The notes: generated by a model not told the origin, from the letters alone. 64,000 nucleotides of DNA from an archaeon (GCA_018694115.1 JABHNB010000005.1:374-64373); one strand, 5' to 3'; numbered from the stretch's first letter, positions 6,554-61,345 are shown. Translations and numbers: made by a program.

Positions 6554-7393
6554 TTATTTTAACTTCCCAATCTCTTCTAATCGTTTCTCACTTCCAATCG
6601 CCCCAGAAAACATCTTCCAAAAAATCTTAGAGAGCCATTCTCCCCAACTTTTCTCTTTAATTGTATAGAAGATAAAAGTCTTTTTTGCCAATTCAGATTT
6701 CCGGCCCGTTGGTTCCTTAACTTCCTTAAGATTGATCACTTTTCCATCGATAACCGTAGCTCTCAAGGGTTGTTTCCTATGCCTAATTTCTATCAATTCC
6801 TTGCCATGCTTGAAATTCAGGGATAACATCTTCCTAATATTCTCCTTACCTATAAGGTCAACACGGCAGATAACTTTTATTGAGATTCCCTTTTTTACAA
6901 GTTCTTCAACAACATCAAACAGATTTATTTTCCCATCATTATAATAAATAAAAGATAGGTTTCCAGAGAAAAACAACACTTGTTTTTTTGCTCCCAATAA
7001 TAGATCTTTAAATTTTGTAAGTCTTCCTGCGGTCACTTCATTTTTTGCTTCCCGGGTCCAAACTTCCTTTTTCTTATCCTCCACATGTTGGAAAATATCA
7101 AATGCCTCAAAGTGTTTTTTCTCTTGCCCTACCATTATCTGTGCCTCTAACCTCTCCTGAAATACTGAACTACTTACCTTCTCAACACTTGACCAATAAA
7201 CTATTTTTAGGGCTCCTCGTGTCCCTTCTCTGAACGTCCGCATTGCCAATGTCCCAAATTCCTTAGAAATCTCCTGAATATATCTGTCTGCGGTTCGCCA
7301 GTTCTTATTAATGTGCTGAGCAATTTCCTGAATTGATCGCGGCCTAGCATAAACAAAATCTTCAATCTTTGTTACAACTTCGGAACTTAGCAT
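6554..7393 (-). CDS. winged-helix DNA-binding domain protein with possible PLD-like (HKD) C-terminal domain
   Basis: The N-terminal ~65 aa look like a wHTH. The C-terminal HRKQPLRATVIDGKVINL loosely resembles a PLD HxK...D...G..N motif. Confidence 0.4.
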   Translation of the reverse strand: MLSSEVVTKIEDFVYARPRSIQEIAQHINKNWRTADRYIQEISKEFGTLAMRTFREGTRGALKIVYWSSVEKVSSSVFQERLEAQIMVGQEKKHFEAFDIFQHVEDKKKEVWTREAKNEVTAGRLTKFKDLLLGAKKQVLFFSGNLSFIYYNDGKINLFDVVEELVKKGISIKVICRVDLIGKENIRKMLSLNFKHGKELIEIRHRKQPLRATVIDGKVINLKEVKEPTGRKSELAKKTFIFYTIKEKSWGEWLSKIFWKMFSGAIGSEKRLEEIGKLK

Positions 7394-7489
7394 AGAAACA
7401 ACAATAACAACCCATATTTAAGCCTATGCAACACTGCGGACAAAAAATGGTCAGTAAATGTCATTAAGAATACAACTCTTAAGATATAT

Positions 7490-8023
7490 ATGAGAAAGAT
7501 GGTATTAACGGGGGGTGCTTGCTCAGGCAAAACGACTCTCGTCAATGAATTAAAGAGAAGAGGTTATAATGTTCTTGAAGAAGTGGCTCGGCAAGTTCTT
7601 GAGGAACTTGGAACGCCCTCAAATTTAGATGAATGGGCTGCCCTTGAAAGCGAGATTTATCAAAGACAGGTTTCAAATGAAGAAAGGGTTGATCGACAAT
7701 CGGGTCTCGTATTTCTAGATAGGGGAATTGGAGATATAGATGCTTACATGAGACATCACTTCGACCAACCATCAATTGATGTCACAAAGGCAAAGATCCA
7801 TAGATATGATTCCATTTTTTTACTTGAGAGGCTACCCTTCGAAGATGATGGTCTTAGGGTGGAGGTCGGAGATGATGAAGCCAGCGAAATTCATCAGAAA
7901 ATAATCGACTCATATCATTCTATGGGCTACACTACTATTCAAATCCCTTCATTCGATGCCCCAAAAGACGTCGCAATTAAACAACGAGCAGATCTAATAC
8001 TCGAATACCTTAACAATGGTTGA
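7490..8023 (+). CDS. AAA_28-family P-loop ATPase / nucleoside kinase (NadR kinase-domain-like)
   Basis: Walker A motif GGACSGKTT. The sequence pattern is similar to the C-terminal kinase domain of the NadR homolog at 41257..42294 (ESCGKSTLAKKL...EVGREY vs ACSGKTTLVNEL...EVARQV). Confidence 0.55.
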   Translation: MRKMVLTGGACSGKTTLVNELKRRGYNVLEEVARQVLEELGTPSNLDEWAALESEIYQRQVSNEERVDRQSGLVFLDRGIGDIDAYMRHHFDQPSIDVTKAKIHRYDSIFLLERLPFEDDGLRVEVGDDEASEIHQKIIDSYHSMGYTTIQIPSFDAPKDVAIKQRADLILEYLNNG

Positions 8024-8495
8024 AATAGAAGCAAAAATAAAATTAAGTGAAGGGGAATTTCAAAGAATATTCCAAATCCTAGGAAAACCAGATTTCCGAA
8101 AACAAAAAAATGCAATTTATCAAATTGGAGAAACCTTTTTCAGAATAAGGGACCAAGAAAATAAAACTTTTATTACATTTAAAGGAAAAAGACAAGATAA
8201 GAAACTTAATTGTAGAGAAGAAATAGAATTTTCAATTAGTCCTAACGACCATGTAGAAGATTTTTTCCTTGCATTAGGCTTTTCGAATCCATTCGTGTAT
8301 GTGAAAAAAAGGGCGGACGTAAAATTTAACGATTGTATTGTCTGTCTAGACATACTCTCCGAAAATGGGTTCTATGTCGAGGTAGAAGGGGATGAGCAGG
8401 CAGTTAACGAGACACTCCAAAAATTAAATCTGGTTGAAAAACCAATTGAATGTAGATCTTATCAAGAAATCTTACAAAATGAAAACAGAATATAA
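8016..8495 (+). CDS. CYTH-domain protein (triphosphate tunnel metalloenzyme; CyaB/ThTPase-like)
   Basis: N-terminal EIEAKIKL (ExExK signature). Conserved FRIRDQ..KTFITFKGK and C-terminal YVEVEGDE acidic strand pattern. Overlaps the upstream kinase by 8 nt. Confidence 0.6.
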   Translation: MVEIEAKIKLSEGEFQRIFQILGKPDFRKQKNAIYQIGETFFRIRDQENKTFITFKGKRQDKKLNCREEIEFSISPNDHVEDFFLALGFSNPFVYVKKRADVKFNDCIVCLDILSENGFYVEVEGDEQAVNETLQKLNLVEKPIECRSYQEILQNENRI

Positions 8496-9000
8496 CTTCC
8501 TATCAAAATATATAGAAAAAAAGAGAAAAACCCTTAGGGATTTAGAAAAAGAAATTGAGATCCTAGAAAGCGCAGATAGTTCAGTTACTATTGAAACTCT
8601 AGCGCCAGGACATGAAAGATTAATTTCAAACGATTATTCCCTGGCAACAGATTTTAAGATTAAAAAAAGAAGCGAAGATCTTGAAGACGTAAGTGGCTAT
8701 TCTGGAGGATACAGGACTTGTAAAACAGATTACTTCCCACAGTTCTTTTTCTATATTGGGGATGAAGGGCAAAGACAAGTTGATATTCGGCAGGATGGTT
8801 TTGAAAAAGATGAAAGAGTAGTTTTGAGAAGTATAACTGTTACAAATGCTTGGAAAGACTATTCGGATAGGGCTAAAATGCAAGAAAATCCTGTAGACGT
8901 CGAAGCGACCTTGGAATTTTTCAAACAGCGAGGGGTTAACGAAGAACTTTTAGAAAAATTAAATAGAAGAATCGAAGAGTGGCAGGAGATTGGATTCTAA
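8476..9000 (+). CDS. hypothetical protein
   Basis: ORF between the CYTH and radical-SAM genes. The track start at 8434 overlaps CYTH by 62 nt; the internal Met at 8476 is more plausible. No motifs. Confidence 0.35.
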   Translation, partial: KMKTEYNFLSKYIEKKRKTLRDLEKEIEILESADSSVTIETLAPGHERLISNDYSLATDFKIKKRSEDLEDVSGYSGGYRTCKTDYFPQFFFYIGDEGQRQVDIRQDGFEKDERVVLRSITVTNAWKDYSDRAKMQENPVDVEATLEFFKQRGVNEELLEKLNRRIEEWQEIGF

Positions 9001-9866
9001 TGGCATGCATTGAAAAAATATACAGTGTATCGGCACTAATCGGAAACGGTTCATGTAATGCTAATTGTGATTTTTGCGCAGGAAAGTACCTCCGGCCAGA
9101 AGCAGAGGAGAACAAAGATCATTCACGAAGTCTAGAGGCAGCAATTAAACTTTCTGCTCGTTATGGTGGGTGGTCACTATCTTTAACTTCCAGCGGAGAG
9201 CCAACATGTGACCCCGATTCATTAACAAGGGCTCTAGAAGTCTACAAAAAATGCGCGGATCAGGGAGCATACTTCCCCAATGTAAATCTCTTCACAAACG
9301 GTATCTTATTTGCGGACGATAATTTTTGTGATGAATATCTCGATTCTTGGAGAGATTTAGGATTAAATAATGTGGCAATCTCGCTCCATGGAGTTACTGA
9401 AGAAGAACAAGCCAAAGCATATAATTTAGAAAGTTACCCAAGTCTAGAAAAGATTACTGGAAATATTCGGGATCACGGACTCGGAGTTAGGGGAACACTC
9501 CTTCTAAGAAAGGGCGGAGTTGACAGTTCCAAAAAATATCAAGATGCAATACACACACTAATCGATAAAGGGATTGACAACATCACCTCATGGCCTGTAG
9601 GAAATCCAGATGGTTCAAGAAATGAGTTCAGCCCATCAAGATTAGGTCAATTAGGAATAAAAACTTGGCTATGGCGTAACGCCAAGAAATGCCATGGTCA
9701 TGTCTGGGGCGGAGGAGTCTATGACTACAAGGGAAATATCCTGAGGATAACAGATTATGTTACCAAACACGATCCCAAAAAAGATTTCGTAAGACAACTA
9801 GTCGTCTTTCAGGATAGCACTGTAGCTTACTCATGGATAAGGGACGGAGCACTATGTATGAAGTAA
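8979..9866 (+). CDS. small radical SAM enzyme (viperin/MoaA-like core), paralog 1
   Basis: CNANCDFC (CxxxCxxC), SSGEPT and LFTNG motifs. Only ~295 aa with no SPASM domain. Confidence 0.55.
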   Translation: MAGDWILMACIEKIYSVSALIGNGSCNANCDFCAGKYLRPEAEENKDHSRSLEAAIKLSARYGGWSLSLTSSGEPTCDPDSLTRALEVYKKCADQGAYFPNVNLFTNGILFADDNFCDEYLDSWRDLGLNNVAISLHGVTEEEQAKAYNLESYPSLEKITGNIRDHGLGVRGTLLLRKGGVDSSKKYQDAIHTLIDKGIDNITSWPVGNPDGSRNEFSPSRLGQLGIKTWLWRNAKKCHGHVWGGGVYDYKGNILRITDYVTKHDPKKDFVRQLVVFQDSTVAYSWIRDGALCMK

Positions 9867-10687
9867 ACTCACCATCAAGAGAATCAAAAACTCTCGATAG
9901 TCTGTCTCTTTTTATTGGAACTGGCGAATGTAATGCAAACTGTGCACACTGTGCTGGAAGGGCCCATAGAAAATATGCTCCAGAAGAAGATGGTATCCTT
10001 AACGAAGATCTAATTCGTCAAACTCTCGAAGACTGCCACAACCAGGGAGCAAGATATCTTTCTATAAGCAGCAGCGGAGAACCAACACTATCTCCAATCT
10101 CAATTACAAAAGTTCTCAGAATGACCGAAGAAATAAAACACTGTGGAATAAGCTATTCTCCAATAAATCTCTATTCAAATGGGATCCGAATCGGAGAGGA
10201 TCAACAGTTCTGCGATGATCACCTCCAATCCTGGAAGGATCTTGGACTTACAACTGTCTACATCACCGTGCATGATATTAATGAAAAGAAAAACGCAGAA
10301 GTTTATGGCGTAAAAAGCTACCCTCCCCTAGAAAAAGTAATTTCAAGAATCCATAAACCTGGCCTGTTAACAAGAGCAAATCTAGTTCTTAGCAAAAGAA
10401 CAATCCATTCTCCAGAAAAGTTCGCCCAAACAATCAATCATCTTCAAAAAATCGGAGTAGATTCAATCTCGGCCTGGCCAATCCGGGGACAAGATGATAC
10501 CTTGGATCCAAATCTCGCTCCAACCTCCGAAGAACTTGATCAAATGGGGGAATGGATCGGAAAAAGAGATCCCAAAAAAGGCAAAATCGTCCTACTTAGA
10601 GAAAACAGCCGAATCAAGTATAAAAATCGAGAAAAACTGACCTTGTTTCCTGATGGAACCCTATCGAATACTTGGTGTAACTATTAA
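9833..10687 (+). CDS. small radical SAM enzyme, paralog 2 (tandem duplicate of 8979..9866)
   Basis: CNANCAHC, SSGEPT and LYSNG motifs. Collinear similarity to the upstream gene throughout (DSWRDLGLNNVAISLHG vs QSWKDLGLTTVYITVHD). Confidence 0.55.
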   Translation: MDKGRSTMYEVNSPSRESKTLDSLSLFIGTGECNANCAHCAGRAHRKYAPEEDGILNEDLIRQTLEDCHNQGARYLSISSSGEPTLSPISITKVLRMTEEIKHCGISYSPINLYSNGIRIGEDQQFCDDHLQSWKDLGLTTVYITVHDINEKKNAEVYGVKSYPPLEKVISRIHKPGLLTRANLVLSKRTIHSPEKFAQTINHLQKIGVDSISAWPIRGQDDTLDPNLAPTSEELDQMGEWIGKRDPKKGKIVLLRENSRIKYKNREKLTLFPDGTLSNTWCNY

Positions 10688-11334
10688 ATCTCTATAATTC
10701 TTCCTCTTCTTCCCACCTGAATAACTTTTGTCTTCCCAATCTTCTCTTCAATACCTTCGGCTTCATGAATATGTGCACTAATCAACAAATCTGGCTTAAA
10801 GTCCTTAACAGCTTTACTCAGGACCTTCTCCCCCGGAACACCAGAAAACTCTGCTGTCGTCCCATGTGCATGCAAGTGTGAAACTAAAATTCTCTTACCT
10901 GATTTCATCCTATCAAAATTTCTCTTAATTTCGGTTAGATCGGAATCATCTAGGCTAAGCTTCCAATTAGGACTGCCAATCCCGGCTATTCCAACATCTC
11001 CGTAGGTCACATAATAATTATGGATATTTTTCCCTCCTCGCTCCAAAACCCTACATTCATCATCAAAATCACAATTACCTGGCACAAAAACAATCTTCTG
11101 CCCAGCATCTTGAAAAGGTTTCAAGATTTTCTCATCACCCTTTGAATATCCATAAATATCTCCTGCCAAAACTACCAAATCAACCTTCTCCTTTTTACCC
11201 TTCTTCGCAAGCTTCTTCGCGATGTCTATATCTCCATGAATATCTCCTGCTGCGAGGATTTTGAGCTTTTTATCCGATTTCTTCTTGTCCTTCTTCTTTT
11301 CTCCAGTCTTTGCCATATAAAACCCAATCAACAC
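10684..11334 (-). CDS. calcineurin-like metallophosphoesterase
   Basis: AAGDIHGD, LAGDIYG, GNCD and SHLHAHG motifs. Confidence 0.6.
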   Translation of the reverse strand: MLIGFYMAKTGEKKKDKKKSDKKLKILAAGDIHGDIDIAKKLAKKGKKEKVDLVVLAGDIYGYSKGDEKILKPFQDAGQKIVFVPGNCDFDDECRVLERGGKNIHNYYVTYGDVGIAGIGSPNWKLSLDDSDLTEIKRNFDRMKSGKRILVSHLHAHGTTAEFSGVPGEKVLSKAVKDFKPDLLISAHIHEAEGIEEKIGKTKVIQVGRRGRIIEI

Positions 11335-11364: not shown

Positions 11365-13749
11365 ATGCCAAAACTATCCGAAATAAAGAATTGGAACATA
11401 GAGATAGAAACAGAAATAACAAAAAACTGGAAAGAGTCGGAACTTTATGCATTTAATCCTAAAACAAAGAAGAAAATTTATTCAATTGATACGCCCCCAC
11501 CATATGTTAACACTCCGATTCATATGGGGCACGCAGTAACTTATTGTTTCATGGATTTCTTTGCACGATATAGGAGAATGAAAGGAGAAGAAGTATTATT
11601 TCCGTTAGGGCTTGACAGAAACGGACTTCCAATCGAGATGGCAACAGAGAAAAAATACAAGATATCTCCATTCAAGGTTGGCAGAGAAAAATTCATGGAA
11701 TATTGTGAAAAACTTCTAAGTGAAGCATCTGTTGAGTCAATAGATTCTTTCGCAAAACTAGGAATCTCATTCTCCTCTTACAAAGAAGGAAAAGAAATCG
11801 GAGCAATCTACAACACAGATTCTCCAGAGTATAGAACACTTACTCAATCAACATTTATTGAACTATTCAAGAAAGGATTAATCTACGAAGACTCAAGAAT
11901 CAACAACTGGGATCCAAAACTTAGAACAACAATTGCAGATTCAGAAATAGACTATCTGGAAATAAACTCCAATTTCAACGATATCAAATGGACAATCAAA
12001 GAAACCGGAGAAGAAGTTGTTATTGGAACAACAAGACCCGAGTTAATTGCAACCTGCGGAATGGTTATTTACAATCCGAAGGATAAAAGATACAAACATC
12101 TTGAAGGTAAAACTGCAATCTCCCCGATCTTCGAGGAAGAAATCCCAATCAAAGCACACCCGCTAGCACAAATTGACAAAGGGACTGGGCTAGTTATGAT
12201 GTGTTCGGCAGGAGATCTGTCAGATATTCAATTCTTTAGAGAAATGAAGATAACTCCAAGAATAGCGATTGGACAAGATGGAAGGATGAACGAAAAGGCA
12301 GGAGTTCTTGAAGGATTAAAAGTTAAGGAAGCTAGAGAAAAGATAGTCGAACTAATCAAGGAAAAGGGTCTACTCGTAAAACAAGAGCAGATAACTCATA
12401 GAACTCCAATCTCTGAAAGATCAAAGGCAGAAATAGAATTCATCGAAATGCCAGAGTTCTATCTCAAACAAATGGATTTCAAGGATGACATGAGAAAAAC
12501 AATTAAGAAAATAAACTTCTACCCAAAAAACTCAAAGAAGATCCTTGACACTTGGATCGATTCAGTTTCGATTGATTGGCCAATTTCTAGAAGAAGATAT
12601 TATGCAACGCCAGTCCCCCTATGGTATTCGGATAATTTAATGGCTATCCCAAAAAAAGGGACATACGTAGAACCCTGGAAAACAAGTCCGCCAAAAGATG
12701 CTGAGGTAATCGATGCGAAAACAAAGAAAGTTCTAGGAACTGTAGCAGATTATCCAAAAAACAAATGGGAAGGGGAAGAAAGAGTTCTAGATACTTGGTT
12801 CGACTCTTCAATTTCTGAACTTAATATGCTCAAGTACCAATCAGACGACGAATTTTTCAAAAAAGCATATCCCGCAACACTTAGACCTCAAGGAAAAGAG
12901 ATCGTTAGAACTTGGCTATATTATACTGTCCTTCGAGGATTCCTAGAAACCGGAAAACCATGTTTTGAAGATACATGGATTCACCAACACATTCTTGATG
13001 GAAAAGGAAGGAAAATGTCCAAGTCTGCAGGAAACGTTATTGATCCTCAAGAAATTATGCGGGAAGATGGGGCAGAAGCACTGAGATTCTGGGCAGCAAC
13101 AGAAGGAGACTTGTCCAGGGGAGATTTTACATGTTCAAAAGAGAAGATAAAATCGGAAAAGAAAACTCTAAACAAACTTCTGAATGTTTCAAGATTTGTA
13201 ATGATGTTCGAAAAACCAAAAACAAAACCAACACTAGTCCCTCTAGACAAACTTTTCATAGAATATATTGAAGGCCTAACAAATAGATGCGATAAACTTT
13301 ACAAAGTTTACGATTTCAATCACCCTGCTCAAGAATTACGAAGATTCCTTTGGGATTTATTTGCATCAAATTATGTTGAGATGGTTAAGAACCGAGCTTA
13401 CAATGAAGAAGGGCAATTCACTAAGGATGAATCCAACTCAGCAAGATACACTCTCCATTTCCTACTTGAAAGATTCTTAACTTTAGTCTATCCGGTAATT
13501 CCCCAGATAACTACCGTAATCGCAAAAGAAAAGGGAATAGATCTTTTGACTGCTGAATGGCCAAAGGCAGAAAAAGCAGATCTCAAAAAGAGCACAGAAA
13601 CAATAGAAAAGATAATGATTTTCAACGGAGAAGTGTGGAAAGCCAAAAAAGAAAAGTCTATCTCCCTCCGAGAACCCATAGAAGGGATCAAGATCCCAAA
13701 AGATCTCAAACCATTCGAAAAAGATCTCAAGGCATGCCATAAGATTTGA
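11365..13749 (+). CDS. class Ia aminoacyl-tRNA synthetase, Val/Ile family (probably valyl-tRNA synthetase)
   Basis: HMGHA (HIGH) and KMSKS motifs. TTRPEL and DTWFDSS motifs. At 794 aa it is too short for IleRS or LeuRS. Confidence 0.6.
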   Translation: MPKLSEIKNWNIEIETEITKNWKESELYAFNPKTKKKIYSIDTPPPYVNTPIHMGHAVTYCFMDFFARYRRMKGEEVLFPLGLDRNGLPIEMATEKKYKISPFKVGREKFMEYCEKLLSEASVESIDSFAKLGISFSSYKEGKEIGAIYNTDSPEYRTLTQSTFIELFKKGLIYEDSRINNWDPKLRTTIADSEIDYLEINSNFNDIKWTIKETGEEVVIGTTRPELIATCGMVIYNPKDKRYKHLEGKTAISPIFEEEIPIKAHPLAQIDKGTGLVMMCSAGDLSDIQFFREMKITPRIAIGQDGRMNEKAGVLEGLKVKEAREKIVELIKEKGLLVKQEQITHRTPISERSKAEIEFIEMPEFYLKQMDFKDDMRKTIKKINFYPKNSKKILDTWIDSVSIDWPISRRRYYATPVPLWYSDNLMAIPKKGTYVEPWKTSPPKDAEVIDAKTKKVLGTVADYPKNKWEGEERVLDTWFDSSISELNMLKYQSDDEFFKKAYPATLRPQGKEIVRTWLYYTVLRGFLETGKPCFEDTWIHQHILDGKGRKMSKSAGNVIDPQEIMREDGAEALRFWAATEGDLSRGDFTCSKEKIKSEKKTLNKLLNVSRFVMMFEKPKTKPTLVPLDKLFIEYIEGLTNRCDKLYKVYDFNHPAQELRRFLWDLFASNYVEMVKNRAYNEEGQFTKDESNSARYTLHFLLERFLTLVYPVIPQITTVIAKEKGIDLLTAEWPKAEKADLKKSTETIEKIMIFNGEVWKAKKEKSISLREPIEGIKIPKDLKPFEKDLKACHKI

Positions 13750-13801
13750 TTATATTCTCCGCAACAACAATTCTTTTTAACTCCAGATAACTAATAATTC
13801 T

Positions 13802-14491
13802 ATGAAAACAATAGATCGTAGTGATTTTGATACAATCCCATCTAGTGGATTTATGAAATCAATGGGCCAAAGGACTCGAGAACTTGAAAGAGTATTAGAA
13901 GAATTAAAAGACGCCCAATCAGAACGAAGTGTACTACTTCACCAAGCCCCATGCAAGATAAAGTTTAATCGTTCTGGGGAACCCGTAGCAGAAGATTTTT
14001 CATTAGGTACTGGATATGAAGTTCAGGCACTCGAAAGGTTTAGTGGATGGTATAGCTATCCCGGGCAACCAGATGGGGGGAGAATGGAATATTCACTTTT
14101 TGTTCAACCCAATTTTGATGTAAGACTTTCTCCAAGGGAATCAAAAAGAGTAATTATCCGTCCAAAAGACTTCGATATTATTGTCCCGGATCTTACTCTC
14201 TACAAGGCAGAAGTTGGAGTTACTAGGGGAGAAAATGGAGAAATGATTTATGCTAGGAATTTTAGCGAAAGGGATACCCCTGGATTGTCCAATACAAGAT
14301 TATTCCTTAGGGAAAGAAAAGCATCAGAAAGCCTTATAGAAATGATCGGAGAACAAGAAGAACCCGTAGAAGGCGTCCCCAAAATAAAACGGAGTTTCAT
14401 GGGGTTTCTTTTAGAGAAGCAAACTGCCCAATTACAACGCCAACACGAAGAAGAACTTAAAGACGCCGCAGTAAATTTAGGTCTTGAATAA
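13802..14491 (+). CDS. hypothetical protein
   Basis: 229-aa ORF with no recognisable motifs. Confidence 0.4.
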   Translation: MKTIDRSDFDTIPSSGFMKSMGQRTRELERVLEELKDAQSERSVLLHQAPCKIKFNRSGEPVAEDFSLGTGYEVQALERFSGWYSYPGQPDGGRMEYSLFVQPNFDVRLSPRESKRVIIRPKDFDIIVPDLTLYKAEVGVTRGENGEMIYARNFSERDTPGLSNTRLFLRERKASESLIEMIGEQEEPVEGVPKIKRSFMGFLLEKQTAQLQRQHEEELKDAAVNLGLE

Positions 14492-14534
14492 CCCCCCTAT
14501 CAACTTTTATAAATACCCCTTATATTGATATACT

Positions 14535-15629
14535 ATGGATGAAGCACAAAAATTTGAACTTGAAAGTACCGTTGAAGAACTGGAAGGCTACCGTGGAAGA
14601 CACACTGAGCTGATCACAGTTTTGGTCCCAGCAGGAGCTACACTAACTCAAACTACAAAACAACTTGAAGACGAAAAAGGGACTGCAACAAACATCAAAT
14701 CAACGGCAACAAGGAAGAATGTTATTAATTCTCTAGAGCGAGCAATAAGAAAGTTAAAAGAAATTGGAAGAACGCCAAAAAATGGACTAGCAGTTTATGC
14801 TGGAAACGTAACCATGGCAGATGGAAAAGAATCTCTTGAAGTCTGGGCAATTGAACCTCCAAAACCACTTAAGGTAAAAATTTATCGATGTGACCAGACA
14901 TTCATTGTAGATCCACTAAAAGAGATGCTTGAAACTGATGAAGTCTATGGTCTTTTGATAATTGAGAGAAACGAAGCATCAATTGGAATTCTAGATGGGA
15001 GATCAATAAGGCAACTCGATCATATGACTTCTGGAATCCCCGGAAAGACAAGGGCTGGAGGACAATCCGCACAGAGATTCGCCAGAATCAGAGAAAGTGC
15101 AGCAAAGGAGTTCTTCAAAAGAGTTGCAGAAAATATGAAAAAACATTTTTGGGACAACAAAAAGTTGAAAGGAATTCTAGTCGGGGGGCCGATTCCAACA
15201 AAAGACGAATTTCTGGATCAAGGCCAATTAGTGACCGCACTTAAAAATAAGGTTATCGCAGTAAAGGATATTGGGGGCACTGGAATGCACGGGTTAAAAG
15301 AATTAGTGCTCCGATGCGAAGATGTCTTGGCAGAACAAGAGATCACAAAGCAAAAACAAATTCTAGATGAATTCTTTGAGAGATTAGCAAAAGAGCCTAA
15401 CAAGGTTTCATATGGGGAAGCAGAAATCGAAGATAGATTAAATAGGGGGGCGGTAGACAAACTAATAATTTCAAAGACCCTCCCTAGAGAAAAGATAAAG
15501 GTTCTTGAAAAATTAGCAAAAGCATCTTCAACAGAAATCCACCTTGTAACAAAAGAGACCGCAGAAGGAGTACAATTCGATAATCTCGGAGGAGTCGGCG
15601 GATTACTGAGATTTGAGATTCACGATTAA
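14535..15629 (+). CDS. prf1: peptide chain release factor aRF1
   Basis: NIKS motif (TATNIKSTATRKN) and GGQ motif (RAGGQSAQRF). Confidence 0.8.
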   Translation: MDEAQKFELESTVEELEGYRGRHTELITVLVPAGATLTQTTKQLEDEKGTATNIKSTATRKNVINSLERAIRKLKEIGRTPKNGLAVYAGNVTMADGKESLEVWAIEPPKPLKVKIYRCDQTFIVDPLKEMLETDEVYGLLIIERNEASIGILDGRSIRQLDHMTSGIPGKTRAGGQSAQRFARIRESAAKEFFKRVAENMKKHFWDNKKLKGILVGGPIPTKDEFLDQGQLVTALKNKVIAVKDIGGTGMHGLKELVLRCEDVLAEQEITKQKQILDEFFERLAKEPNKVSYGEAEIEDRLNRGAVDKLIISKTLPREKIKVLEKLAKASSTEIHLVTKETAEGVQFDNLGGVGGLLRFEIHD

Positions 15630-19280: not shown

Positions 19281-19796
19281 ATGGCAGGCAAGGTTATCCT
19301 CCCACCAAACTATCCCAATGATCCATTAATCTTTCTAGCAGGACCCATTCAAGGCGCCCCAGAATGGCATGATCCCGCAATCAGAATTATTCATGCAAAA
19401 GACTTAGAGATAAATATTGCGTCTCCAAGTCGGAGTGTAAGCGAGGAATATCTGAATCAGAACCTCGCAAAATTCGGAAATAGGTTTCCGGAGCAGGTTG
19501 ACTGGGAGAGTAAACACCTAAGGCAAGCTGCAGATCATGGAGCAATACTTTTCTGGATGCCTAAGGAGAAGACCCATTTTTGCGAAAGGGCGTATGCACA
19601 AACAACTCGTTTTGAATTAGGGGAATGGGCAACAAAGTCCAAATATGGAAAATGTGATCTGGCAGTAGGAATTCAGCCAGGATTCCCTGGAGAAAGCTAT
19701 ATTAGAAGAAGATTACATCAGGATCTTCCAGACTTAAAAATTCACATAACACTAAGAGAAACTTGCTGGGATGCAATTGAAAAAGCAAGAAGTTAG
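19281..19796 (+). CDS. nucleoside 2-deoxyribosyltransferase (NDT)-like protein
   Basis: FLAGPIQG N-terminal motif, ILFWMP, and an ELG acidic motif (RFELGEWAT), as in the NDT/YtoQ Rossmann-like family. Paralogous in pattern to 43536..43985. Confidence 0.5.
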   Translation: MAGKVILPPNYPNDPLIFLAGPIQGAPEWHDPAIRIIHAKDLEINIASPSRSVSEEYLNQNLAKFGNRFPEQVDWESKHLRQAADHGAILFWMPKEKTHFCERAYAQTTRFELGEWATKSKYGKCDLAVGIQPGFPGESYIRRRLHQDLPDLKIHITLRETCWDAIEKARS

Positions 19797-19839: not shown

Positions 19840-20685
19840 ATGAACTTCCCAGAATTAGCAATACTTAAACCTACTTCTAGATGTAATCAAAATTGTAAAT
19901 ATTGCTATGACGTAAAAAATCCTTGCGAAATTTCCTTAGATGAAATAAAGAAAATTATTTCTTATATCTCCCAAAATGGGACAAAATCGGTAATTATTAG
20001 TGGTGGAGAACCTCTTCTTAGGGAAGATATTGGAGAAATAATGGCAGAAATAAAATCTAAAGGTTTAAACGTTTTTTTAGATACAAATGGAGATTTCTTT
20101 CTAGATAGGTTAAATGAAATTGAAAGAAATATCGATATCTTGGGATTGCCCCTAGATGGTCCTTCAGAAGAGTTTTCATATAGGGGGAAGGAAAATTTCC
20201 AAAATGTGATAAAGATACTTGAGCATTATAAATCTAAAAAAGAACGGCCAAAAATTAGAATCGGGACCGTTGTGACAAAAGAAAATATAAATCTTTTGGA
20301 AGATATCGCGAAATTAATAAGAAATTTTGAAATAGACGTGTGGAAAATTTATCAGTTCATGCCTACTGGCCCTCTAGCAACAAAAAATAGGGCTGCTTTG
20401 GAAATTGACGAAAGAAGCTTTCTCGAGGCCATTAAAAATTTAAAAGATAAAAACCTCCAGTTAAACATATTAACTTGTTCCTCAGAAAGTCGCAAGAGAG
20501 CTCATTTTTTTATAGGATCTGACGGAAAAGTATATGTTCCCGAAGACGAGAAGGGAGATTGCAAGATTCTTGGAAGTGTGTTTGAAAAGGGCACAATTGA
20601 AGAATGGAAAAGAATAACGGACCTAAAAAGCTATAAAGAAAATTCCGAAAAAGTTCTTTACCCCCTGTCTTTAGAAGAGCATTAA
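19840..20685 (+). CDS. viperin-like radical SAM enzyme (pVip family candidate)
   Basis: CNQNCKYC and ISGGEPLL motifs. Collinear resemblance to viperin beyond the radical-SAM core: IDILGLPLDGPSEEF vs ILAISCDSFDEE, and DVWKIYQ vs VRWKVFQ. Confidence 0.55.
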   Translation: MNFPELAILKPTSRCNQNCKYCYDVKNPCEISLDEIKKIISYISQNGTKSVIISGGEPLLREDIGEIMAEIKSKGLNVFLDTNGDFFLDRLNEIERNIDILGLPLDGPSEEFSYRGKENFQNVIKILEHYKSKKERPKIRIGTVVTKENINLLEDIAKLIRNFEIDVWKIYQFMPTGPLATKNRAALEIDERSFLEAIKNLKDKNLQLNILTCSSESRKRAHFFIGSDGKVYVPEDEKGDCKILGSVFEKGTIEEWKRITDLKSYKENSEKVLYPLSLEEH

Positions 20686-40535: not shown

Positions 40536-41267
40536 ATGGATGAATTAAAAAGAGTTCGACCAAGAAATAGGATAGCGAGTGCCATTAGTAATTATGTCCG
40601 AGGCTGGACTACATTCGAAATCTCTTGGCTATTAATTTTCACAATTATCAATATCTATTTATTTATCGCCTGGCAAGATAGTTGGATCGGACTAACCGCT
40701 TCCATTACCGGGATGATCTGTGTAGTTCTAACTGCAAAAGCAAGAATAAGTAGCTTTTATTTTGGATTAGTAAACATTCTCGCATATTCTTATGTGGCCT
40801 TCCAAAGCGCATACTATGGGGACGTAATGTTGAATATGCTTTATTTCCTACCTATGACCTTTGTAGGAATATACTATTGGAGAAGAAATAGAAAGGGAAA
40901 TAAAAAAGATGAAATAGTTGTAAAGAGCTTAGATTGGGAAAGGAGAATCATATGGTTCCTAAGTTCAATCGTCATATTGATTGTCTACGGACTAATCTTA
41001 ACAATAATCAAGGGAACCTTGCCATTCATCGATTCGGCCACAACCGTCTTTTCAGTAATAGCAACGATAATGTTGAATAAGAGACTAACAGAACAGTGGT
41101 TCTATTGGATTGCAGTTGATGTCTTAGCAATAATCATGTGGGCATACATATTCATAACAAGTGGCGGAGATGTGAGTATGCTAGTTATGTGGTCGGCATT
41201 CTTAGTTAATGCAGTCTATGGTTACTTCAATTGGAAGAGATTAGAAAGGAAAAACAATGGAAAATAA
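40536..41267 (+). CDS. pnuC: nicotinamide riboside transporter PnuC
   Basis: ~240 aa, 7-8 TM, W-rich N-terminal helix pattern. Immediately upstream of, and overlapping, nadR. Confidence 0.55.
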   Translation: MDELKRVRPRNRIASAISNYVRGWTTFEISWLLIFTIINIYLFIAWQDSWIGLTASITGMICVVLTAKARISSFYFGLVNILAYSYVAFQSAYYGDVMLNMLYFLPMTFVGIYYWRRNRKGNKKDEIVVKSLDWERRIIWFLSSIVILIVYGLILTIIKGTLPFIDSATTVFSVIATIMLNKRLTEQWFYWIAVDVLAIIMWAYIFITSGGDVSMLVMWSAFLVNAVYGYFNWKRLERKNNGK

Positions 41268-42294
41268 GAAAACCGTCGGTTTCATTGGCGGAAAATTTCT
41301 TCCACTACACCAAGGACATATCTATGTGATCATTGCCGCATCTAATTATGTTGATGAATTATATGTGGTTGTTTCTTCTTCGAAAAACAGAGACCGAGAA
41401 TTATGTGATCGTGAAGGGATAAAATACATTCCTGCAGAGAATCGACTTTCTTGGCTTGGGGAGGCATTGAATAATTTGGAAAACATAAAAATAATTCATA
41501 TCGAGGACGATCAGTGGGAGGATAATTACGATTGGGGCCGGGGTGCGGAGATGATCAAGGAAGCAATCGGAAAACCAATTGATTTTGTTTTCAGTTCTGA
41601 AACCGGGTATGGGGAGTTATTCAAAAAATATTATCCTGATTCAAAACATATTGTTGTGGATGACGAAAGAAAAACAGTAACAACTTCTGCCACAGAACTC
41701 AGAAAAAATCTTTATGACAATTGGGACAAATTACCAAACTGTGTCCGATCACACTTTACAAAGAAAGTTGCAATTGTTGGAACCGAAAGTTGTGGAAAAT
41801 CAACCCTTGCAAAAAAACTTGCGAAGTTTTACAATACTGAATTTGTACATGAAGTTGGAAGAGAATATTGTGAGAAGTTTTCAAATCTTCTAACGCGGGA
41901 AATGTTTGATCAGATTGCTATGGAGCATTCCCTCCTACAATTAAAAAAAGCAGAGACTAGCAATAAAGTTTTGTTTGTAGATAGCGAAGCCACAATAACT
42001 CAATATTATCTGGAGATGTATCTTCCGGGAGAGAGGTCAAAACTAATAGAAGAAATAATTGCATTACAAAATTACGATCTAGTTATTTTTCTTGAGCCAG
42101 ACGTAAAATGGGTTGAAGATGGATTCAGATTCGCAGGAGAAGATGCTCAGAGAATAAAAAACAATGAAAAATTAAAACAGATGTTTCAGGAACGCTGTAT
42201 AAACTTCATTAGCGTTGATGGGAACTACGATGAGAGATTCAATAAATCAAGAGAACTGGTTGACAACCTTTTCAAAAAGGAGAATTTAGAATGA
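41257..42294 (+). CDS. nadR: bifunctional NMN adenylyltransferase / ribosylnicotinamide kinase NadR-like
   Basis: N-terminal cytidylyltransferase motif GGKFLPLHQGHIYVI. C-terminal AAA_28 kinase with Walker A GTESCGKST. Confidence 0.7.
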   Translation: MENKKTVGFIGGKFLPLHQGHIYVIIAASNYVDELYVVVSSSKNRDRELCDREGIKYIPAENRLSWLGEALNNLENIKIIHIEDDQWEDNYDWGRGAEMIKEAIGKPIDFVFSSETGYGELFKKYYPDSKHIVVDDERKTVTTSATELRKNLYDNWDKLPNCVRSHFTKKVAIVGTESCGKSTLAKKLAKFYNTEFVHEVGREYCEKFSNLLTREMFDQIAMEHSLLQLKKAETSNKVLFVDSEATITQYYLEMYLPGERSKLIEEIIALQNYDLVIFLEPDVKWVEDGFRFAGEDAQRIKNNEKLKQMFQERCINFISVDGNYDERFNKSRELVDNLFKKENLE

Positions 42295-60817: not shown

Positions 60818-61345
60818 ATGAATATAGAAACCGAAGTTCGTAGCTTTATTTCAAAAGAGAAATTTGACAAATTACTTGATTTCTTTAAGCAAAATGCTGA
60901 ATTAATAAAAGAAGATTCTCAAGAGACTTCCTATTTTGACTGTGATGAAGACTTAAGAATTCAAAAAAATGATTTTTTCGCAAAGATTTGGATGAAGAAA
61001 GGAAAACTCCATGATGATTCTAGAGAAGAGATTGAAATTAAGTTTGATAAAAGTGAATTCGAAAATTTAGAGAAATTATTTCTTGCCTTGAAGTATAATA
61101 CTGAGATAAAATGGTTCAGAAAAAGATCTCAATTTAAATGGGACGATATAACTGTTTGCCTAGACTATACAAAAGGATATGGCCATATCATAGAACTTGA
61201 GAAAATGTGCACTGAAGAAACAAAAGAAAGAGAGTTTGAAATACTTAAACAAAAACTCCAGTCTTTGGGCGTAAACATATCTTCAAAAGAAGAATTTAAT
61301 CAAAAGTTCCAATATTACAAGGAGAATTGGAGATCTCTAATCTAA
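60818..61345 (+). CDS. CYTH-like domain protein, paralog 2
   Basis: N-terminal IETEVRSF (ExExR variant of ExExK). Internal EEIEIKFD and C-terminal GHIIELEKM acidic strands. Confidence 0.45.
   Translation: MNIETEVRSFISKEKFDKLLDFFKQNAELIKEDSQETSYFDCDEDLRIQKNDFFAKIWMKKGKLHDDSREEIEIKFDKSEFENLEKLFLALKYNTEIKWFRKRSQFKWDDITVCLDYTKGYGHIIELEKMCTEETKEREFEILKQKLQSLGVNISSKEEFNQKFQYYKENWRSLI

Follow-up and report, generated by a model that had tools for sequence, protein, structure and literature searches.

What reaction is carried out by an archaeal gene cluster that ends in two tandem paralogous radical S-adenosylmethionine (radical-SAM) enzymes and begins with a P-loop kinase-like protein and a triphosphate-tunnel protein? 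The cluster occupies positions 7490-10687, on the plus strand, of a 64,000-nucleotide stretch of archaeal DNA (GCA_018694115.1, JABHNB010000005.1:374-64373), hereinafter the window. An earlier sequence-only reading of this stretch saw in it a five-gene operon with the logic of a viperin-type antiviral system. We find that the first radical-SAM gene, rSAM1, usually together with the translationally coupled rSAM2, is the previously uncharacterised core of a regulated operon. The operon has the appearance of core nucleotide metabolism, not of an antiviral system of the viperin type. Our preferred reading, with a probability of about 45%, is that the pair, under the control of a regulator, transforms a nucleotide by radical-SAM chemistry as a housekeeping function linked to the (deoxy)nucleoside triphosphate pool. 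The nucleotide substrate of the pair would most plausibly be a nucleoside triphosphate.

Nucleotide chemistry is suggested by several observations. The fold neighbours of the pair include MoaA, viperin and BlsE. MoaA acts on GTP, viperin on CTP, and BlsE on a cytosine nucleoside. Besides the archaeal regulator, named h279 here, the regulators of homologous loci bear nucleotide-binding domains, namely an ATP-cone in NrdR-like proteins and a NUDIX domain in a winged helix-turn-helix (wHTH) protein. The accessory genes encode nucleotide or phosphate enzymes that recur in varied order and are sometimes fused. Finally, the phage copies are found in a replication context.

A scan of one genome per species produced 58 rSAM1 loci, among them loci of candidate phyla radiation (CPR) bacteria, and a scan of IMG/VR produced 16 viral loci. 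About 16 kb were read per locus, open reading frames (ORFs) were called and then searched with iterated profiles, and genes within 3.5 kb of rSAM1 were tallied for archaeal-labelled (n=45), CPR-labelled (n=9) and viral (n=15) loci; individual loci are denoted by numbers with the prefix L. The rSAM2 gene lies directly 3' of rSAM1 in 26 archaeal, three CPR and seven viral loci. The h279 gene is directly upstream of the rSAM1 operon and divergent from it in 34 of the 45 archaeal species-level loci. Genes of the AAA_28 kinase-like protein (16 archaeal loci, 36%), the CYTH protein (14, 31%) and the hypothetical protein (6, 13%) are, like h279, absent from all CPR and viral loci. Seven of the nine CPR loci have a divergent NrdR-like protein of 150-170 amino acids, also seen within this distance in one archaeal and no viral locus, and the other two have a divergent wHTH-NUDIX protein, seen in no archaeal or viral locus. 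The constant unit is rSAM1 and a regulator, rSAM2 is a frequent partner, and the genes of the kinase, CYTH and hypothetical proteins are accessories specific to certain lineages. Thus the five genes proposed by the sequence-only reading do not form a conserved unit.

The rSAM1 protein is strongly conserved. Identity is 74-81% in 119 listed cluster representatives, all of about 288 amino acids, whose named sources are Woesearchaeota, Nanoarchaeota and similar archaea. It is 59-72% in CPR bacteria (Paceibacterota, Moraniibacteriota, Collierbacteria, Patescibacteria group) and 58-71% in the phage contigs of IMG/VR. Such conservation is usual for core informational proteins, and here it is common to two domains of life and phages. 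For rSAM2, identity to most listed orthologs is 54-65%, with one at 86%. The rSAM1 family is small and isolated, with 309 of 1.84 billion cluster representatives matching at E<=0.001 and 32 at 1e-30. In a rough neighbour-joining tree the archaeal copies of rSAM1 form one clade, and phage and CPR copies are interleaved outside it. The rSAM1 of locus L015, labelled Dojkabacteria, nests in the archaeal clade, and its NrdR resembles those of the archaeal loci L003 and L030; this is probably an archaeal contig, and the public label looks wrong.

The two proteins of the pair are paralogs with 35% identity (E 1e-48). Both match Pfam Radical_SAM (PF04055) with E-values of 2e-12 and 8e-13 (47.9 and 49.3 bits; gathering cut-off 29.5). 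The cysteines of the CX3CX2C cluster motif are invariant in two alignments of 36 and 42 homologs; in rSAM1 these are C26, C30 and C33 (numbering of the ORF starting at 8979). The SSGEPT SAM motif is kept by both proteins and is invariant in the rSAM1 alignment. Additional cysteines C10, C92, C238 and C293 of rSAM1 are invariant, and C77 and C117 nearly so; C10 and C293 fall on low-confidence tails of the structure model. In rSAM2, the C-terminal C282 is invariant and the internal C68 nearly invariant. Both proteins have a conserved C-terminal tryptophan followed by cysteine, invariant in rSAM2. The pair has the partial (beta/alpha)6 TIM-barrel fold with the glycine-rich SAM-binding motif, and rSAM1 has a C-terminal beta-rich extension.

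Neither protein could be assigned to a family below the radical-SAM superfamily in Pfam, NCBIfam or PADLOC, and no curated NCBIfam model reached its cut-off; the Tes, TrsS, HxsC, PqqE and BioB models gave low scores, similar to those of viperin and MoaA. This agrees with the sequence-only reading, which did not recognise the arrangement as a described system. Searches of PDB sequences with single sequences and an rSAM1 profile gave no significant match for the radical-SAM proteins, and the BFVD viral structures gave only generic radical-SAM matches with identity of at most 22%. The distant relatives of rSAM2 in a representative search (25-34% identity) were likewise unassigned MoaA-like proteins, in uninformative contexts. 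Structure models (mean predicted local distance difference test score, pLDDT, 88 for rSAM2 and 76 for rSAM1) were compared with known structures. Among the 60 matches listed, the scores for rSAM2 and rSAM1, respectively, were 19.3 and 17.4 with viperin, 18.7 and 18.8 with MoaA, 17.9 and 18.3 with GDGT-MAS, 17.9 and 16.4 with BlsE, 15.9 and 14.0 with PFL-AE, and 11.2 for both with QueE; TYW1 was listed for rSAM2 (10.3) and not for rSAM1. Judging by sequence and predicted fold, these are active-looking radical-SAM enzymes from the structural neighbourhood of MoaA and viperin that seem to belong to neither family. The radical-SAM decarboxylases BlsE and MilG, which act on a cytosine nucleoside, differ from the pair as well: identity is 11-13%, and there is no sign of an antibiotic cluster.

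Given these fold neighbours, the pair might perform a MoaA-like step in the biosynthesis of a pterin, flavin or corrinoid-related cofactor, including the cofactor supply for a class II ribonucleotide reductase. However, the models of MoaA (GTP 3',8-cyclase) score far below their cut-offs: 21.6 bits for rSAM1 and 32.8 for rSAM2 with TIGR02666 (cut-off 284), and 20.5 and 26.2 bits with TIGR02668 (cut-off 325). MoaA binds an auxiliary [4Fe-4S] cluster with a C-terminal three-cysteine motif, whereas neither protein of the pair has a closely spaced C-terminal cysteine triad, C238 and C293 of rSAM1 being 55 residues apart. No MoaC, molybdopterin or other cofactor genes were found in any neighbourhood, and no B12-binding domain was seen. 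Moreover, CPR and DPANN-type organisms are generally poor in cofactor biosynthesis. A role of this kind is therefore improbable. The sequence-only reading had named a cofactor or modified-nucleoside pathway as its fallback; this is closer to the evidence than viperin.

In a viperin-like antiviral system, the kinase would supply a nucleoside triphosphate, the pair would convert it to a chain-terminating 3'-deoxy-3',4'-didehydro (ddh) nucleotide, and the CYTH protein would process the triphosphate. The fold is compatible with this, but MoaA matches equally well by structure, and the viperin model NF038283 gives 19.7 bits for rSAM1 and 20.1 for rSAM2, about one tenth of its cut-off of 180 and no better than MoaA, Tes or TrsS. 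The motif NVAISLHG, taken by the sequence-only reading for a viperin feature, appears not to be distinctive: the viperin and MoaA models score the pair about equally poorly. A similar beta-strand motif is present in MoaA. The PADLOC models of prokaryotic viperins (pVip), supplied with no cut-off, matched rSAM1 with E-values of 2.8e-4 and 2.1e-3, and rSAM2 with 3.7e-6 and 8.8e-5; scores about as low as these were obtained with several unrelated NCBIfam radical-SAM families. The other three operon proteins had no PADLOC match or marginal P-loop matches only.

The genomic context also speaks against defence. The neighbours are housekeeping rather than defence genes, and identity of 75-81% across orders, together with stable synteny with topoisomerase and aminoacyl-tRNA synthetase genes, is atypical of defence genes. 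Phage copies of the gene belong to the replication modules of the phages themselves, to which a chain-terminating product would be harmful. Unlike viperins, the enzymes form a paralogous pair with dedicated transcription regulators. Finally, the window contains a much better viperin-like candidate. Neither the proposed viperin membership nor the defence role is supported, and an antiviral system of this type is extremely unlikely.

This other candidate is a radical-SAM gene at 19840-20685 (281 amino acids), whose best NCBIfam match is NF038283 over nearly the whole model (E 2.6e-26, 92 bits with the cut-off of 180). It is preceded by a nucleoside 2-deoxyribosyltransferase-like gene at 19281-19796 (PF15891, E 1.3e-8). 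The pairing is reminiscent of the logic of BlsM/MilB and BlsE/MilG.

Features of the locus are listed in Table 1. The five co-directional, overlapping genes noted by the sequence-only reading were found in the window, with the motifs GGACSGKTT, EIEAKIKL, CNANCDFC and CNANCAHC in the corresponding ORFs. The start of rSAM1 was moved from GTG 8979 to ATG 9000, since all 35 aligned homologs begin with MACIEK, and the hypothetical gene most likely starts at ATG 8479, according to its sequence and an alignment with six homologs. With these starts, consecutive genes overlap by 8, 17, 1 and 13-34 nucleotides, as expected for the single tightly packed operon proposed earlier, and translational coupling is therefore likely. 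A chance arrangement is excluded, because every gene has homologs and the five genes occur in exactly this order in a second species (L029).

Table 1. Coordinates of the rSAM1 operon, its regulatory region and the adjacent gene, counted from the first nucleotide of the window.
Feature	Position	Strand	Remarks
h279, putative transcription regulator	6554..7393	-	279 aa; N-terminal wHTH and uncharacterised C-terminal domain
Operator/promoter region	7427..7479	.	conserved non-coding; boxes A and B 44 bp apart
Box A	7427-7435		TGCAACACT
Operator dyad	7438-7454		GGACAAAAAATGGTCAG
Box B	7471-7479		TACAACTCT
AAA_28 P-loop kinase-like protein	7490..8023	+	first gene, accessory; 177 aa; Pfam AAA_28 E 2.8e-32
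CYTH / triphosphate-tunnel metalloenzyme	8016..8495	+	accessory; 159 aa; Pfam CYTH E 1.3e-11
Hypothetical protein	8479..9000	+	accessory; about 173 aa from ATG 8479; ORF open from TTG 8434
rSAM1, radical-SAM enzyme anchoring the module	9000..9866	+	288 aa
rSAM2, paralogous radical-SAM enzyme	9833..10687	+	284 aa from 9833; start at 9854 possible; overlaps the end of rSAM1
YfcE-like calcineurin-like metallophosphoesterase	10684..11334	-	convergent; Pfam Metallophos E 2.5e-22

The unit is larger than five genes, as the divergent regulator gene and the operator belong to it; the genes listed by the sequence-only reading are real, but its boundaries were too narrow. Its suggestion of an inserted module fared worse. 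Indeed, the flanks are housekeeping genes, as it noted, but the GC content of the operon region equals that of the surroundings and the order topoisomerase, regulator, operon, metallophosphoesterase is retained in syntenic regions of related genomes, so there is no sign of recent insertion. The convergent metallophosphoesterase was considered as a further member of the module and rejected. It is found near rSAM1 in nine of the 45 archaeal loci and in no CPR or viral locus, all nine also having the topoisomerase synteny, and it is best explained as local synteny. Its score with the YfcE subfamily model, 44 bits, is below the cut-off. The window carries the archaeal marker genes MCM, ATP-dependent DNA ligase, CDC48, an aRF1-like protein and Cbf5, and assemblies of the same contig were obtained from several metagenomes. 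An Rfam scan of the window and nine CPR or phage-like loci revealed no riboswitch near these genes, only tRNAs and one tmRNA.

The intergenic region between h279 and the operon contains a candidate operator. In archaeal loci, two TACAAC(A/T)C boxes are exactly 44 bp apart, and the dyad GGACAAAnTTTGTACAG and a GTATAT element sit between them. A box pair of the ACAAC type with this spacing was found by a strict pattern in 19 of 34 archaeal loci, as compared with 0.7% of random 160-nucleotide windows from the same loci. An alignment of the operator from 16 species has a mean column identity of 68%, in non-coding DNA. With both strands of the 64-kb window searched, the pair occurs once, at the position given in Table 1. 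Box B stands just 5' of whichever gene leads the locus, be it AAA_28, CYTH, a small ORF or rSAM1, an arrangement that links the accessory genes to one transcription unit. A divergent subgroup of h279 has its own boxes of the TAAAACACT type, with the 44-bp spacing kept in L018, and therefore regulator and operator co-vary. The h279 protein belongs to no Pfam or NCBIfam family. The conserved operator pair and its cognate regulator constitute a directly testable archaeal transcription switch.

The first gene of the operon encodes a P-loop protein that scores 112.6 bits with Pfam AAA_28 (cut-off 27) and 28.8 bits with the NadR equivalog model TIGR01526 (cut-off 341). By these scores it is to be classed as an AAA_28 family member and not as a NadR ortholog. 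Its nearest solved relative is the ribosylnicotinamide kinase (RNK) half of a NadR-type nicotinamide mononucleotide (NMN) adenylyltransferase (E 5.5e-4). The likeness to the RNK domain of the NadR homolog in the window, pointed out by the sequence-only reading, holds in that both have a Pfam AAA_28 domain, but a direct comparison shows little similarity (21% identity, E 0.003). Since the NadR of the window is so distant, the operon kinase likely uses another nucleoside. It also differs from NadR in standing alone, and some of its homologs are fused to CYTH. The NadR-type enzyme of the window, at 41257-42294, carries its AAA_28 kinase domain in a complete NAD salvage pair (40536-42294), in which it is preceded by the PnuC NMN transporter gene (40536-41267).

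The CYTH protein was correctly described as a triphosphate-tunnel enzyme. It scores 45.1 bits with Pfam CYTH (cut-off 23.2) and 61.9 bits with the cyaB model TIGR00318 (cut-off 57.95), and has the ExExK motif EIEAK at residues 3-7; among solved structures, the archaeal triphosphatase SaTTM, Saci_0718, is nearest to it (E 2.9e-12). Fused AAA_28-CYTH proteins were found in L013, L019 and L037, the CYTH half being confirmed in L013. The order of the two genes varies (L020, L026), but they always adjoin the rSAM1 unit. In L003 and L030 the same slot is occupied by a divergent CYTH-like protein of 173-181 amino acids with the motif EIERKYLI, which has no NCBIfam match; a CYTH profile seeded partly with the L003 protein recovers the L030 protein too. 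The hypothetical protein has no significant match in Pfam, NCBIfam or PADLOC. Its homologs, with the motifs DYSLATDFKI, GYDGGY and YPQFYF, adjoin rSAM1 in six other species, and the gene is absent from the closely syntenic L001. A second stand-alone CYTH gene of the window, at 60818-61345 (Pfam E 3e-8), is 38% identical to the operon gene product over 71 residues and lies near genes of an RsmB/F-type methyltransferase and a histidine phosphatase.

One possibility is that two unrelated modules merely abut here, an AAA_28-CYTH nucleotide module and the radical-SAM pair. The fusions demonstrate that the kinase and CYTH proteins work together independently of the radical-SAM genes, each of the two is lacking in about two thirds of archaeal loci and neither occurs in any CPR or phage locus, and the window holds the second stand-alone CYTH. 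On the other hand, AAA_28 (16 species) and CYTH (14 species) occur either between the regulator with its operator and rSAM1 or immediately behind rSAM1; the first gene, whichever it is, has the conserved operator in front of it; the divergent CYTH-like protein fills the same slot in the NrdR-type loci L003 and L030; and the genes overlap. We consider two independent modules quite unlikely.

The regulators of the non-archaeal loci also suggest a link to nucleotides. The NrdR-like proteins align to TIGR00244 over nearly the full length (E 1e-17 to 1e-21). The Zn-ribbon domain Zn_ribbon_NrdR (PF22811) and the ATP-cone (PF03477) were identified in the L056 protein, its database relatives and the L003 gene product; for other copies this architecture rests on the near-full-length alignment to TIGR00244. 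The NrdR-like gene precedes rSAM1 on the same strand in L003, L015 and L030; in L057 the two genes diverge. Two dyads with a spacing of 42 bp are common to the intergenic regions of L042, L043, L046 and L047. The first, CAAyATrTTG, is next to the nrdR start; the second, AGCACAAyATATrGC followed by TTTTAAT, is about 60 nucleotides before rSAM1. NrdR boxes have a published consensus and are described as occurring in pairs whose spacing is a whole number of helical turns (PMC4009431), and both shared dyads resemble this consensus; the background of the box scoring is 0.12 matches per kb. In L003 (6531-6660) and L030 (756-900), the conserved non-coding element A(T/G)TCAACCCATGTGTCTATCA lies between the NrdR-like and CYTH genes; it is unlike both the bacterial NrdR-box-like dyads and the TACAAC boxes.

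These observations bring to mind the NrdR-controlled reductase operons nrdDG. The CPR loci resemble them in the divergent Zn-ribbon/ATP-cone repressor, the paired NrdR-box-like dyads with helical-turn spacing, the radical-SAM chemistry and the phage copies in replication modules. The pair might contain an activase of a glycyl-radical enzyme, above all an atypical NrdG serving an anaerobic class III ribonucleotide reductase. NrdG is a radical-SAM protein often carried by phages; this would explain both the NrdR linkage and the phage presence, and the cluster motif of rSAM1 is N-terminal, as this reading would have it. However, neither protein matches NrdG or PflA models at E<=0.1. No adjacent reductase subunit was seen in the sampled loci: tblastn with E. 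coli NrdD, NrdG and NrdB against 1.25 Mb of loci found nothing, and the large neighbouring ORFs sampled with Pfam or PHROGs included no glycyl-radical enzyme. The C-terminal extension, if it closes the barrel in the way known for enzymes of small molecules, would argue against a protein substrate, and the second paralog is left unexplained. In addition, the NrdR-like proteins are below the equivalog cut-off, and a class II reductase co-exists with the pair in L031. An activase is very unlikely.

The phage copies of the pair sit in replication modules. Terminase genes are present in L065 and L052, and DNA polymerase genes in L065, L076 and L078; a primase zinc ribbon, an SNF2 helicase and HNH endonucleases are encoded in viral loci as well. 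The viral loci have no recurrent partner besides rSAM2, and tblastn with rSAM1 found no match in GenBank phage records. In L076 (6331-11417), the gene of a family-B DNA polymerase is divided at position 146 of the Pfam model, with rSAM1, rSAM2 and a 223-codon ORF between its halves, which looks like insertion of a mobile cassette into the polymerase gene. The gene order in L069 (5964-11282) is RNA-ligase-like, KDO8P/DAHP-synthase-family, rSAM1, rSAM2, AAA_33 P-loop kinase and TnpB-like (Cas12f1-like TNB domain). In L078, a ThyA-fold protein is encoded at 13810-14892, 5 kb from rSAM1; its nearest solved relative is the cytidine monophosphate (CMP) 5-hydroxymethylase MilA (E 7e-37), and it is closer to MilA than to thymidylate synthase. 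The DNA of this one phage could contain hydroxymethylated pyrimidines, a hint of base hypermodification. Locus L052 is labelled Pseudomonadota; a Mu-like prophage protease and the large subunit of the terminase are encoded around its rSAM1, so it is phage-like and the label looks wrong.

Alternatively, the pair might modify a macromolecule, hypermodifying DNA bases in phages and performing a conserved modification of tRNA or rRNA in cells. Very high conservation is typical of enzymes recognising conserved RNA or DNA, and the placement of the phage copies in DNA replication modules and the CMP/dCMP 5-hydroxymethylase-like protein of L078 agree with such a role, as does the presence of P-loop kinases beside the pair in DPANN archaea and L069. 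A combination of a kinase and a radical-SAM enzyme is known from thymidine hypermodification, and the invariant tail cysteines of rSAM1 recall the mechanism of RlmN and Cfr. Nevertheless, Pfam detects no RNA- or DNA-binding domain, the phage loci have no further conserved partner, for example a glycosylase, a transferase or a DpdA-like protein, and it would be uncommon for an RNA-modifying enzyme to be under the control of nucleotide-sensing regulators (NrdR-like and wHTH-NUDIX). Action on a macromolecule is rather unlikely.

The scheme that we prefer, transformation of a free nucleotide, may be pictured as follows. In archaea, h279 would bind the two TACAAC boxes flanking the operon promoter and, depending on a small-molecule effector, release or recruit transcription; the operon would then be translated from overlapping genes. 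Where present, the AAA_28 kinase would phosphorylate a salvaged nucleoside, and the CYTH protein would hydrolyse a triphosphate, either inorganic triphosphate or that of the substrate or product. With its cluster and SAM motifs, rSAM1 is predicted to reduce the [4Fe-4S] cluster and cleave SAM to the 5'-deoxyadenosyl radical, and, as the fold neighbours and the context suggest, the radical may take a hydrogen from the nucleotide. The invariant cysteines in the flexible tails at both protein ends might serve as hydrogen donors, redox partners or additional cluster ligands. In CPR bacteria, the NrdR-like repressor and the dyads would tie rSAM1 expression to the ATP/dATP-sensing circuit of deoxynucleotide synthesis. 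The hosts are ultra-small, salvage-dependent DPANN archaea and CPR bacteria, and their phages.

Several facts weigh against this scheme. The kinase and CYTH genes, being missing from most loci, are little informative about the core reaction. The N-terminus of h279 is only weakly similar to the archaeal wHTH regulator PH1932 (E 0.013 with a profile of 18 homologs). Five NrdR-like copies score 62-75 bits, below the TIGR00244 equivalog cut-off of 124.65, and these proteins may be divergent paralogs; the dyads could serve autoregulation of nrdR only. The NrdR homologs of other Microgenomates adjoin neither rSAM1 nor a reductase, and thus the position of nrdR alone is not diagnostic. Full-text literature searches found no paper on this radical-SAM family or gene arrangement and no studied homolog of the pair, nor a recorded substrate or product.

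A more specific version is that the pair belongs to deoxynucleotide or DNA-precursor metabolism, with a SAM-radical step that produces or changes dNTPs or helps in their supply, for example as a reductase-independent deoxygenation or as support of a class II reductase, governed by NrdR in CPR bacteria and by a new wHTH regulator in DPANN archaea, and passed between the domains by phages. So specific an assignment is doubtful. The idea that rSAM1 replaces ribonucleotide reductase was considered and weakened: a class II B12-dependent reductase, whose best PDB match is the T. maritima enzyme (E 3e-33), is encoded 3.5 kb downstream of the pair in L031. The upstream region of this reductase gene (13066-13215; the gene itself is at 13215-14404) contains AACCACAAC / GGTTGTGGTT in three copies, two of which have a spacing of 33 bp.

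A considerable part of microbial diversity consists of CPR bacteria and DPANN archaea, which rely on salvage from their hosts; for most of their conserved genes without a known function there is still no explanation. Finding the reaction of the pair would add new radical-SAM chemistry and, if the NrdR link is true, a new component of the deoxynucleotide metabolism of organisms for which culture on their own is not yet possible.

Two further observations concern genes outside the operon. In the window, a radical-SAM/SPASM protein of 344 amino acids, whose best matches are peptide-maturase families, below threshold, is encoded at 1215-2249. Its gene follows a RadA/RecA-like gene (390-1157) and precedes that of a 329-residue protein of no family. 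In the Microgenomates locus L083 (6001-7148), an NrdR homolog is directly followed by a Ham1p-like (ITPase-type) enzyme sanitising the nucleotide pool, and a protein with a 5-hydroxymethyldeoxyuridine (5-hmdU) DNA kinase helical domain (PF18723) is encoded about 5.5 kb away.

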